Assembly: GCA_902496295.1 (NCBI GenBank)
Contig: CABVAF010000003.1
Coordinates: 3,356-67,355, forward strand
From: an uncultured Clostridium sp.
GTDB taxonomy: Bacteria; Bacillota; Clostridia; TANB77; CAG-508
DNA: 64,000 nucleotides
Direction: 5' to 3'
Below are positions 9,300 to 10,620 of this stretch, piece after piece (the stretch's first letter is position 1; every line of letters begins with the position of its first letter). Made by a program: the position numbers and the translations under genes. The notes under the pieces are model-generated. The model searched no databases. It was not told where the DNA came from and saw nothing but the letters and a program-made list of their open reading frames with translations.

Positions 9300-10097
9300 A
9301 TGCAAGTTATCTCAAGTAAAGATAATGAGACAATAAAGAATATAAAAAAATTAAAAGAAAAGAAATATAGGGATGAAGCAGGTTGCTATATTATAGAAGG
9401 AATAAAACTAGTGAAAGAAGCAATAGAAGAGAATGCAGAAATTAAGTATGTTGTAATTTGTGAGGACTGCGAGGATAATGTAAAGCTGGAACAAAATTTA
9501 TTGTATGACATAGCAAAAAATGACTGTTTATATGTTACTAAAAAAATATTTCAGTCAATATCAGATGTAACAACACCTCAAGGAGTACTAGCAGTAGTAG
9601 AAAAGAAAAATGCTAATAAACAAATTAACTATAATGAGGATATAATTATAGTGCTAGATGGAATACAAGACCCAGGAAATTTAGGAACCATTCTAAGAAC
9701 AGTTGATAGCGCAGACTTAAAGCAAATAATACTTTCTAAAAATAGTGCAGACCCATATAATCCAAAGGTTGTTCGTTCAACCATGGGAGCAATTTTTAGA
9801 GTAAATATAATAGAAACAGAGGATATAGTAAGCACTTTAAAAGAAACGAAAAAGCATAACTTCGAAGTTGTTGTTACATCATTAGAAACTGAAGAAAGCA
9901 TATATAATATAGAATATAAAAATAAAGCTATAGTAATTGGAAATGAAGCCAATGGGGTTTCAAAAGAAGTTCAAGAAATTGCAGACAGGAAAGTTAAAAT
10001 TCCAATGCTTGGAAAAACAGAAAGTTTAAATGCATCTGTTGCTACAGGAATTATGATATATGAATATGTAAGAAATAAATGGAAAAAATTGACATGA
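9300..10097 (+). CDS. TrmH/SpoU-family RNA 2-prime-O-methyltransferase (RlmB-like)
   Basis: SpoU motifs (LDGIQDPGNLGTILRT; ESLNASVATGI). RBS AGAGGTG. Confidence 0.7.
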   Translation: MQVISSKDNETIKNIKKLKEKKYRDEAGCYIIEGIKLVKEAIEENAEIKYVVICEDCEDNVKLEQNLLYDIAKNDCLYVTKKIFQSISDVTTPQGVLAVVEKKNANKQINYNEDIIIVLDGIQDPGNLGTILRTVDSADLKQIILSKNSADPYNPKVVRSTMGAIFRVNIIETEDIVSTLKETKKHNFEVVVTSLETEESIYNIEYKNKAIVIGNEANGVSKEVQEIADRKVKIPMLGKTESLNASVATGIMIYEYVRNKWKKLT

Positions 10098-10145
10098 TAT
10101 AAAAGAAATGCTAAAATTATAATATCAGCATATGCTGATATTATA
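10089..10145 (+). promoter_or_regulatory. sigma-A-like promoter plus a perfect 28-bp palindrome upstream of the Spo0A_C-like gene
   Basis: TTGACA at 10089-10094, a 17-nt spacer, then TAAAAT/TATAAT. Positions 10118-10145 (TATAATATCAGCATATGCTGATATTATA) form a perfect palindrome over the -10 and transcription-start region. Confidence 0.5.
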
Positions 10146-10167
10146 TATAAAAAGGGAGTAGTGAAAG

Positions 10168-10620
10168 ATGGACTACGAAAGAACACTTGGTATCTTGCGG
10201 AAACTAAATCAAAAGGGGTACTCCATTTTGGACTTATGTGCAGTAATTGAGTGCGCTGCCCAAAATGGGGCTTTCTCAGAGCTAGAAATAGAGGAGCTAT
10301 CCATAGATGAAAAAATTGAGCAGTGCATGAAAGAACTTATAATTCCAAACCACATGAAAGGATGGGACTACACTTTTGAAACAGTTAAGCTTTGTATCAA
10401 GCATCCAGACCAGATGCTTGAAGAATTTGTGCTATTTGAGCAAGTTGCTGAAAAGTACGAGATAACTGCTTCAGCAGTCGAAAGAAGCATTAGAACCGTG
10501 ACGAACAAAGCGATAGAAAAAGCTAATCCGGATGTACTTTATAGGTATTTTGGAGAAGAAAAAATCACGCCAAAACAGTTCTACGTCGGAATTGCTCGGA
10601 TGGTGCAAAAAAGGCTATAA
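10168..10620 (+). CDS. stand-alone Spo0A C-terminal (DNA-binding) domain-like protein
   Basis: 150 aa. The C-terminal half follows the Spo0A_C pattern (KGWDY..E.VK...HPDQ..E..LFE.VAEKYE.TASAVERSIR...NKAIE...P..L...FG.....PKQF....A). No receiver domain. GC is about 40% against a 28% background. Confidence 0.5.
   Translation: MDYERTLGILRKLNQKGYSILDLCAVIECAAQNGAFSELEIEELSIDEKIEQCMKELIIPNHMKGWDYTFETVKLCIKHPDQMLEEFVLFEQVAEKYEITASAVERSIRTVTNKAIEKANPDVLYRYFGEEKITPKQFYVGIARMVQKRL

Follow-up and report, generated by a model that had tools for sequence, protein, structure and literature searches.

Within a 64,000-nucleotide stretch of contig CABVAF010000003.1 from an uncultured Clostridium sp. (the window, the whole stretch of DNA analyzed here), a gene that lies between a SpoU/RlmB-like methyltransferase gene and aspS encodes a 150-residue protein with Spo0A's DNA-binding domain (Spo0A_C) and without a receiver domain. 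The gene is preceded by a near-consensus promoter and a perfect 28-bp palindrome, both of which have counterparts in diverged relatives. We suggest, with a probability of roughly 0.45, that the protein is an autoregulated, signal-independent Spo0A-type DNA binder and that the palindrome is its own operator.

The protein is a member of the Spo0A_C family by sequence and by fold. Residues 50-131 match Pfam PF08769 (Spo0A_C) with E=1.1e-16 and 61.1 bits against a cutoff of 25, and the Spo0A C-domains of Protein Data Bank (PDB) entries 1fc3 and 1lq1 are matched by sequence with E ~2e-7; there is no match to the receiver family PF00072, and just 45 residues precede the DNA-binding domain. These results bear out an earlier note, made from the sequence alone, that had described a stand-alone Spo0A effector domain lacking a receiver and had proposed the alignment to Pfam Spo0A_C as a check. 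Because it has no receiver domain, the protein cannot be controlled through phosphorylation of one of its own domains. The PF08769 match ends at profile position 83 of 104 as a result of a deletion of 6-8 residues, visible in alignments of the subfamily, in the loop ahead of the last helix; that helix is retained. The Spo0A equivalog TIGR02875 scores 48.8 bits, below its cutoff of 200, and, as judged by this score and by the missing receiver, the protein is not a Spo0A orthologue. In its recognition helix the motif T-A-S-x-V-E-R-x-I-R aligns with 1fc3 and 1lq1, and E105, R106 and R109 align with recognition-helix residues of Spo0A that we take to be E213, R214 and R217 and that presumably contact bases. 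The Spo0A positions R211, H218, E221 and W224 are replaced in this helix, and S102, R106 and R109 vary within the subfamily.

An AlphaFold2 (AF2) model built from 33 sequences has a mean predicted local distance difference test score (pLDDT) of 91 and consists of helices at residues 3-15 and 20-32, a linker of lower confidence at residues 33-45 and then six helices. With this model as query, Foldseek at E<=0.001 returned solely seven Spo0A C-domain chains (1lq1 and 1fc3; target-normalized template modeling (TM) score 0.77-0.87, root-mean-square deviation (rmsd) 1.8-2.2 A); against the DNA-bound C-domain 1lq1 the target-normalized TM score is 0.86-0.87 with an rmsd of ~2 A over ~108 columns, at an identity of 26-30% to Spo0A domains. 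The two N-terminal helices form a module whose motif, L..L...GY[ST]..DL...IE, is common to ~25 stand-alone relatives of ~150 residues and which has no Pfam match. MAFFT placed this module on alpha4-beta5-alpha5 of Spo0A; that it is a receiver remnant was rejected on the hhalign comparison, which gives a probability of 0.45% against Spo0A receivers.

The promoter, TTGACA-17-TGcTAAAAT, scores 11/12 and has an extended -10 in addition. If, as we infer, transcription starts at A10124, 7 nt after the -10, the dyad would span about -6 to +22. The palindrome is perfect, as the earlier note had stated, with a 14+14 dyad, and it is unique in the window: its 20-nt core occurs once with 3 mismatches allowed (0 expected). 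The real window has 5 perfect inverted repeats whose arms measure 12 nt or more, versus an average of 0.25 per Markov-1 simulated window, and the four others are situated in short gaps where genes end, at terminator-like positions. The same note had placed the -10 inside the dyad, and this part did not hold. The TATAAT at 10118-10123 has a poor -35 (ATGATA; 10/12 overall), these six bases are variable among six diverged relatives so that the TATAAT is not conserved there, and the conserved extended -10 abuts the dyad instead. Further downstream, GUAGU right after the ribosome-binding site could pair with ACUAC of codons 2-3 (10159-10175) and would leave the start codon in a small loop; the pairing is also present in the relatives L010 and L013 and may merely reflect conserved codons.

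The upstream regions of six diverged lineages (the window, L010, L011, L013, L014 and L015) were aligned. At the -35, AATTGACAT is identical in all six, and after 13 variable nucleotides TGnTAAAAT is invariant; then follow six variable bases and, in every lineage, ATCAG[C/T], a spacer and [G/A]CTGA[T/A], with an AT-rich stretch and the conserved ribosome-binding site GAAAGGRAG downstream of the dyad. The promoter elements are identical despite proteins that share 36-64% identity with each other. When the dyad is laid out as 12 pairs on this alignment, 95% of cells are paired and 5/12 pairs have changed on both sides, and its covariation score of 0.30 compares with 0.13 in shuffles (2/500 reach 0.30) and with at most 0.04 for slid partners. 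Between L011 and the window there are four compensatory double changes, among them the outer arms AGTTAT/ATAACT, and in both the dyad is perfectly symmetric (12-nt arms) right up to the base adjoining the -10. L011 is also the sole lineage with CAGT/ACTG for CAGC/GCTG and the sole one with K for R106, a single case. In the closer relative L008, with a protein 79% identical, the palindrome is kept at 28/28 positions and the very next base differs.

The dyad accompanies the gene regardless of what lies upstream. It is kept in L010, which has no methyltransferase 3' end and whose contig ends 233 nt upstream of the gene (L010 1-233), and in L011, which, like L012, carries the aspS-methyltransferase-mfd block turned around with respect to the gene (L011 1-907); in L010 and L011 the gene upstream is a different one or has the opposite orientation, and in L015 the dyad is placed after the promoter and a separate canonical terminator. 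The unit of promoter, dyad, gene and aspS is intact in all rearranged relatives. By its conserved position and its compensatory changes, the palindrome that the earlier note had called an operator or autoregulatory site is a selected cis-element of this gene's promoter. The sole further TCAGC-N2-6-GCTGA in the window, at 5138-5151, lies inside a coding region and is probably due to chance. A scan of the genomes of the Genome Taxonomy Database (GTDB) for the promoter-plus-ATCAG pattern found 39 look-alike promoters, 0 of which have a Spo0A_C gene downstream. A gene for an XRE-type helix-turn-helix protein in Anaerotaenia torta DSM 100431 (L029 1868-1960), an unrelated Lachnospiraceae genome, has a look-alike promoter with ATCAGC-gaattt-GCTGAT at the predicted +1, nearly the same dyad core as in the window. 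All distant stand-alone Spo0A_C genes inspected (L058 ~7900-8000, L059 ~5300-5397, L061 ~90-192, L063 ~930-1025 and L064 ~2360-2452) have a near-consensus TTGACA-17-TGnTATAAT followed within ~10 nt by a short dyad of unrelated sequence, which suggests that the promoter-plus-dyad layout is family-wide.

Combining the properties of the protein with those of its upstream region, we suggest that (i) the gene product, a helix-turn-helix protein in which a flexible linker joins the two-helix module to a complete Spo0A_C domain, would be transcribed from its own sigma-A-type promoter (TTGACA, 17 nt, TGnTAAAAT), (ii) the palindrome spanning the predicted start is most likely its own operator, and (iii) the protein would dimerize via the N-terminal module, bind the dyad and repress its own very strong promoter, giving negative autoregulation. 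In addition, it may bind 0A-like sites elsewhere and in that way modulate Spo0A-controlled genes, because the residues aligned with three recognition-helix residues of Spo0A are kept. Autorepressor genes usually combine a promoter of consensus strength with a dyad that overlaps it. Moreover, no start from this promoter could lie far enough upstream to include the left outer arm in L011, an indication that recognition takes place at the level of DNA.

Several observations weigh against an operator. The core half-sites are not evenly spaced across the six lineages (3, 4, 4, 4, 4 and 5 nt), and the right arm carries a 2-nt indel in four of them, variation that would be poorly tolerated by a rigid symmetric dimer on B-DNA. 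In the four lineages with the indel the outer arms are TA-repeat-like and hence self-complementary by nature, so that much of the pairing of outer arms in these four counts for little. At the corresponding position, other stand-alone Spo0A_C genes carry dyads that are unrelated in sequence, and P0151 and P0048, the two whose recognition helix was read, keep the V-[E/D]-R-x-I-R motif despite their unrelated dyads, a combination that fits a sequence-independent RNA hairpin better. Spo0A contacts G2, C4 and G5 of TGTCGAA (PMC3485338), and the core 7-mer of the dyad, TGCTGAA/T, has G2 and G5 without C4. Finally, the dyad does not recur in the 64-kb window, as it might if there were a regulon. The roles of operator and RNA hairpin could coexist.

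Alternatively, the dyad acts in RNA, as a stem-loop of 5-6 bp at the extreme 5' end of the mRNA that would protect the message from 5'-end-dependent decay of the RNase J1/RppH type and raise expression, and the protein acts only elsewhere. We consider this unlikely, although it fares best among the alternatives. Such 5'-terminal stem-loops are established mRNA stabilizers in Gram-positive bacteria. In all six lineages the core stem stands at a fixed distance from the -10 and begins at the predicted +1, the loop varies freely between 3 and 5 nt (GAAA in L011), and the right-arm indel of four lineages also speaks for a hairpin. Folding energies predicted for the 5' hairpins range from -4.9 to -8.4 kcal/mol, and the unrelated dyads within ~10 nt of the -10 in five more distant stand-alone Spo0A_C genes, among them GAGCT/AGCTC, GTACG/CGTAC and ATTGGCA/TGCCAAT, fit this explanation too. 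The predicted 5' ends in the family are more stably folded than those of 37 promoter look-alikes (median -6.7 vs -2.8 kcal/mol, Mann-Whitney p=0.002; p=0.02 after the subfamily was collapsed), although these controls are crude, as they come from other genomes and were pre-selected for ATCAG. Against a role restricted to RNA, the symmetry in the window and in L011 runs 6 nt upstream of the predicted start, with compensatory changes in DNA that could not be transcribed from this promoter, and L011 lacks a co-directional upstream gene to supply read-through transcripts. Rfam gave no family at gathering score anywhere in the 64-kb window, dyad included.

A further proposal, put forward in the earlier note and compatible with either role of the dyad, is that the protein serves as a constitutive mimic of Spo0A or as its competitor at 0A boxes (TGTCGAA), independently of the phosphorelay, and in that way advances or blocks the initiation of sporulation. 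This is plausible, and we nevertheless rate it as doubtful, slightly more so than the RNA hairpin. The Spo0A_C fold and the E-R-x-x-R of the recognition helix are kept, and the host carries the sporulation genes for SipL and YunB. The loop deletion lies beside a region of Spo0A that we take to be needed for activation of sigma-A, which would favor a blocker over an activator. The isolated DNA-binding domain of Spo0A binds genuine targets without phosphorylation (PMC3485338), and the mimic hypothesis has already been published for truncated spo0A genes of phages from the human gut, which code for no more than the DNA-binding domain (Schwartz et al. 2023, doi 10.1101/2023.01.19.524802). The low identity to Spo0A domains argues in the opposite direction, as do the replacement of the remaining recognition-helix positions and the variability of S102, R106 and R109. 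An identity of 37-44% between species whose AspRS is 94-95% identical is unexpected for the mimic of a conserved regulator. Furthermore, the dyad in front of the gene does not constitute a 0A box, such boxes are about as frequent in the window as chance predicts (3 found vs 2.0 expected), and the host's own full-length spo0A was not located.

An exhaustive profile search of protein clusters at E<=0.001 found 687 clusters, including many stand-alone proteins of ~150-170 residues, full-length Spo0A and proteins with 2-4 tandem Spo0A_C domains. The close subfamily consists of eight clusters at 90% identity that score >210 bits against the subfamily profile, the next match scoring 71 bits, and in every member with readable context the gene is convergent with aspS, including the inverted L011 and L012. 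No relative was found by a peptide-pattern scan of the GTDB genomes, from which the lineage seems to be missing. The low protein identity given above holds for the window versus L010, L011 and L013, as does the AspRS value; versus L011, Mfd is 89% and the methyltransferase 88% identical. Comparing DNA in 50-nt windows with L010, L011, L013 and L014, the aspS flank is mostly 84-98% identical, the methyltransferase flank 72-92% where present (L013 and L014) and the gene body ~36-72%, mostly 45-60%. In nine contigs with an identical methyltransferase the gene differs by 0-3 of 453 nt, like its flanks, and ongoing hypermutation within the species is thereby ruled out. A diversity-generating retroelement or a paralogue was likewise rejected, as the window has no template repeat or second copy. 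In L007 and L008 aspS is 99.7-99.8% identical to that of the window, yet the alleles are 6% and 11% divergent, with a synonymous divergence (dS) of 0.085-0.13 and a ratio of nonsynonymous to synonymous divergence (dN/dS) of 0.67-0.87, and the mosaic blocks of differences in these two indicate allele exchange by recombination. To judge from these comparisons, the pattern is one of divergence between lineages plus rare exchanged alleles.

The gene has a GC content of 0.397 and a GC content at third codon positions (GC3) of 0.404, compared with a GC3 of 0.14-0.18 in the neighbors mfd, methyltransferase gene and aspS and a GC content of 0.285 in the window. The raised GC that the earlier note had pointed out is therefore real; the acquisition that it took this to suggest is another matter, since all alleles are GC-raised (0.33-0.42 vs 0.29-0.31 for their loci) and the synteny with aspS is fixed, which together argue against a recent event.

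Given this pattern, the protein could be a host-fixed, fast-diversifying decoy or gatekeeper of Spo0A that binds DNA independently of the phosphorelay and sets the threshold at which sporulation is entered, or a neutralizer of phage Spo0A mimics, its evolution being driven by conflict and the dyad being a private, co-evolving operator. We judge this improbable; if true, conflict would explain the island of divergence, the mosaic exchange of alleles and the persistently raised GC3. It is more improbable still that the gene was recently acquired from a foreign source, or is a remnant of a phage or mobile element, with the palindrome as a relic. Apart from the raised GC3, this would agree with the gene being an island of divergence between conserved flanks and with the enrichment of PF08769 on mobile elements of gut-microbiome Firmicutes (Jiang et al. 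2019, PMC6907783) and its presence in gut phages. However, every relative has the gene at this position, convergent with aspS, also where the neighboring block has been inverted, no integrase, repeats or phage genes are found near the gene, the subfamily has no match in viral contigs, and the gene varies no more than its flanks do within the main population. That the palindrome merely serves the methyltransferase gene upstream as an intrinsic terminator, an alternative raised in the earlier note itself, is very improbable: it does lie 21 nt past the methyltransferase stop and could form a 12-bp RNA stem of ~-14 kcal/mol, but the stem is mostly A-U and is followed by AUAUAAAAAGGG, so that there is no U-tract, a terminator scan gave nothing at the palindrome, the dyad lies downstream of the conserved promoter, and L011, L010 and L015 retain it although their upstream gene is different, faces away or has a canonical terminator of its own.

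Several known systems resemble the autoregulated DNA binder that we favor. Spo0A of B. subtilis and C. difficile (1fc3, 1lq1) shares with it the six-helix effector fold, the helix-turn-helix, the recognition motif and the last helix; unlike Spo0A, the protein lacks a receiver and a phospho-acceptor, has an unrelated two-helix module and a shorter loop, and evolves very fast. Spo0A binds tandem 0A boxes in 1lq1, and the dyad of this gene is in contrast an inverted repeat from which the C4 of a 0A box is missing. In gut phages, the truncated spo0A genes have the same receiver-less Spo0A_C architecture, and in both cases the function is hypothesized. Phage proteins of 98-195 residues match the model, one of 160 residues aligns over its full length, and PHROGs 37855 and 24603 are matched. 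In contrast to the phage genes, the subfamily is chromosomal, fixed beside aspS and without a match on viral contigs, and the matches in phage records are at most ~34% identical and cover the DNA-binding domain only. The PF08769-only proteins of mobile elements belong to the same Pfam family, and the host here is from a Clostridia lineage known solely from metagenome assemblies; unlike them, this copy has no mobile-element features around it.

Autorepressors of the phage Cro/CI type, LexA and TetR likewise have a strong promoter with a dyad over the start, and here compensatory changes are seen in addition; in contrast to them, the fold is unrelated and the half-site spacing varies by lineage, which is unusual for the class. 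With 5'-terminal stabilizing stem-loops the locus shares a stem near the predicted +1, free sequence and variable loop length; unlike in these, the symmetry enters untranscribed DNA in two lineages. In the literature we found no experimental characterization of any receiver-less Spo0A_C protein. The gene extends a known, uncharacterized class and reveals no new mechanism.

Receiver-less members of the family also occur in other arrangements. Many metagenomic tandem proteins of 230-470 residues (P0006, P0007, P0008, P0011-P0014 and others) have 2-4 Spo0A_C domains and no receiver, with four repeats in the 454 residues of P0006, and to our knowledge this receiver-less tandem architecture has not been described. 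In another lineage (L062 1240-2762; L063 1026-2719) the order is ispH, a Spo0A_C gene, a short SpoU-type methyltransferase gene and a second Spo0A_C gene. This is a second case, after that in the window, of a SpoU methyltransferase beside a receiver-less Spo0A_C gene, and the adjacency may be a coincidence.

The features of the locus are listed in the table. The stem-loop at its downstream end, which is kept in L007 and L008, is likely the terminator of the Spo0A_C gene, shared with the convergent aspS.

Features of the Spo0A_C locus (window coordinates; aa, residues of the encoded protein)
Feature	Position	Strand	Remark
mfd	5779-9246		
SpoU/RlmB-like methyltransferase gene	9300-10097		upstream of the Spo0A_C gene; stop codon 10095-10097
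-35, TTGACA	10089-10094	+	promoter scan; reported to overlap the methyltransferase stop codon at 10095-10097
Extended -10, TGcTAAAAT	10109-10117	+	17 nt after the -35; promoter scan
Perfect 28-bp palindrome, TATAATATCAGCATATGCTGATATTATA	10118-10145	.	14+14 dyad, or 12-nt arms around ATAT
Dyad core, ATCAGC-ATAT-GCTGAT	10124-10139	+	conserved; 6-bp hairpin at mRNA 5' end if +1 is A10124
Shine-Dalgarno sequence, GGGAG	10154-10158	+	9 nt ahead of ATG; read from the sequence
Coding sequence, 150-aa receiver-less Spo0A_C-family protein	10168-10620	+	open reading frame length and start kept in all relatives
N-terminal two-helix module, aa 1-32	10168-10263	+	motif L..L...GYSI.DL...IE; AF2 helices, shared motif
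Six-helix Spo0A_C DNA-binding domain, aa 46-150	10303-10617	+	Foldseek, motif alignment
Recognition helix, aa 101-118	10468-10521	+	
Stem-loop, 18-bp perfect stem and 15-nt loop, then T-run (+ strand)	10629-10679	.	inverted repeat I1
aspS	10681-12438		convergent with the Spo0A_C gene

The rest of the window is an ordinary Firmicutes chromosome with gatAB, a topoisomerase gene, ctsR-mcsAB-clpC and proS. It includes sporulation genes for SipL (SPOCS and LysM domains; 59755-61287) and YunB (61280-61987), and from their presence the host is probably an endospore former. PADLOC gave no match for the Spo0A_C gene, and a defense-system component was rejected on this ground. In the Rfam search of the window a T-box leader was found ahead of neither aspS (12439-12664) nor proS (~45209-45222).

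Three other open reading frames are GC-rich outliers in this window of 28.5% GC, at 52831-53217 (+), 37898-38893 (-) and 28815-29309 (-). The first is the strongest (128 residues, GC 0.53, GC3 0.72); it has no Pfam or PADLOC match and lies just upstream of genes for an OmpR-type response regulator (53374-54063) and a histidine kinase (54078-55607). The other two have GC contents of 0.48 (Cu_amine_oxidN1 domain) and 0.44 (lipoprotein-like, no Pfam match). Between gatB and a gene for a GntR-family regulator (start 22748) lies a long perfect inverted repeat with 16-nt arms and a 2-nt spacer (22700-22733) that could be a terminator, an operator or both. Two adjacent small open reading frames each match half of the TauE/SafE sulfite-exporter profile, 39200-39547 the C-terminal half and 39642-40019 the N-terminal half.

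Spo0A domains without a receiver occur widely among gut Clostridia and among their phages and mobile elements, and the proteins that carry them are suspected of rewiring sporulation, which governs the persistence and transmission of gut anaerobes. The locus described here is a clean test case for this class: it consists of one chromosomal gene, its consensus promoter is defined, there is a single candidate for the binding site, and a natural allelic series is available for both the protein and this candidate site.

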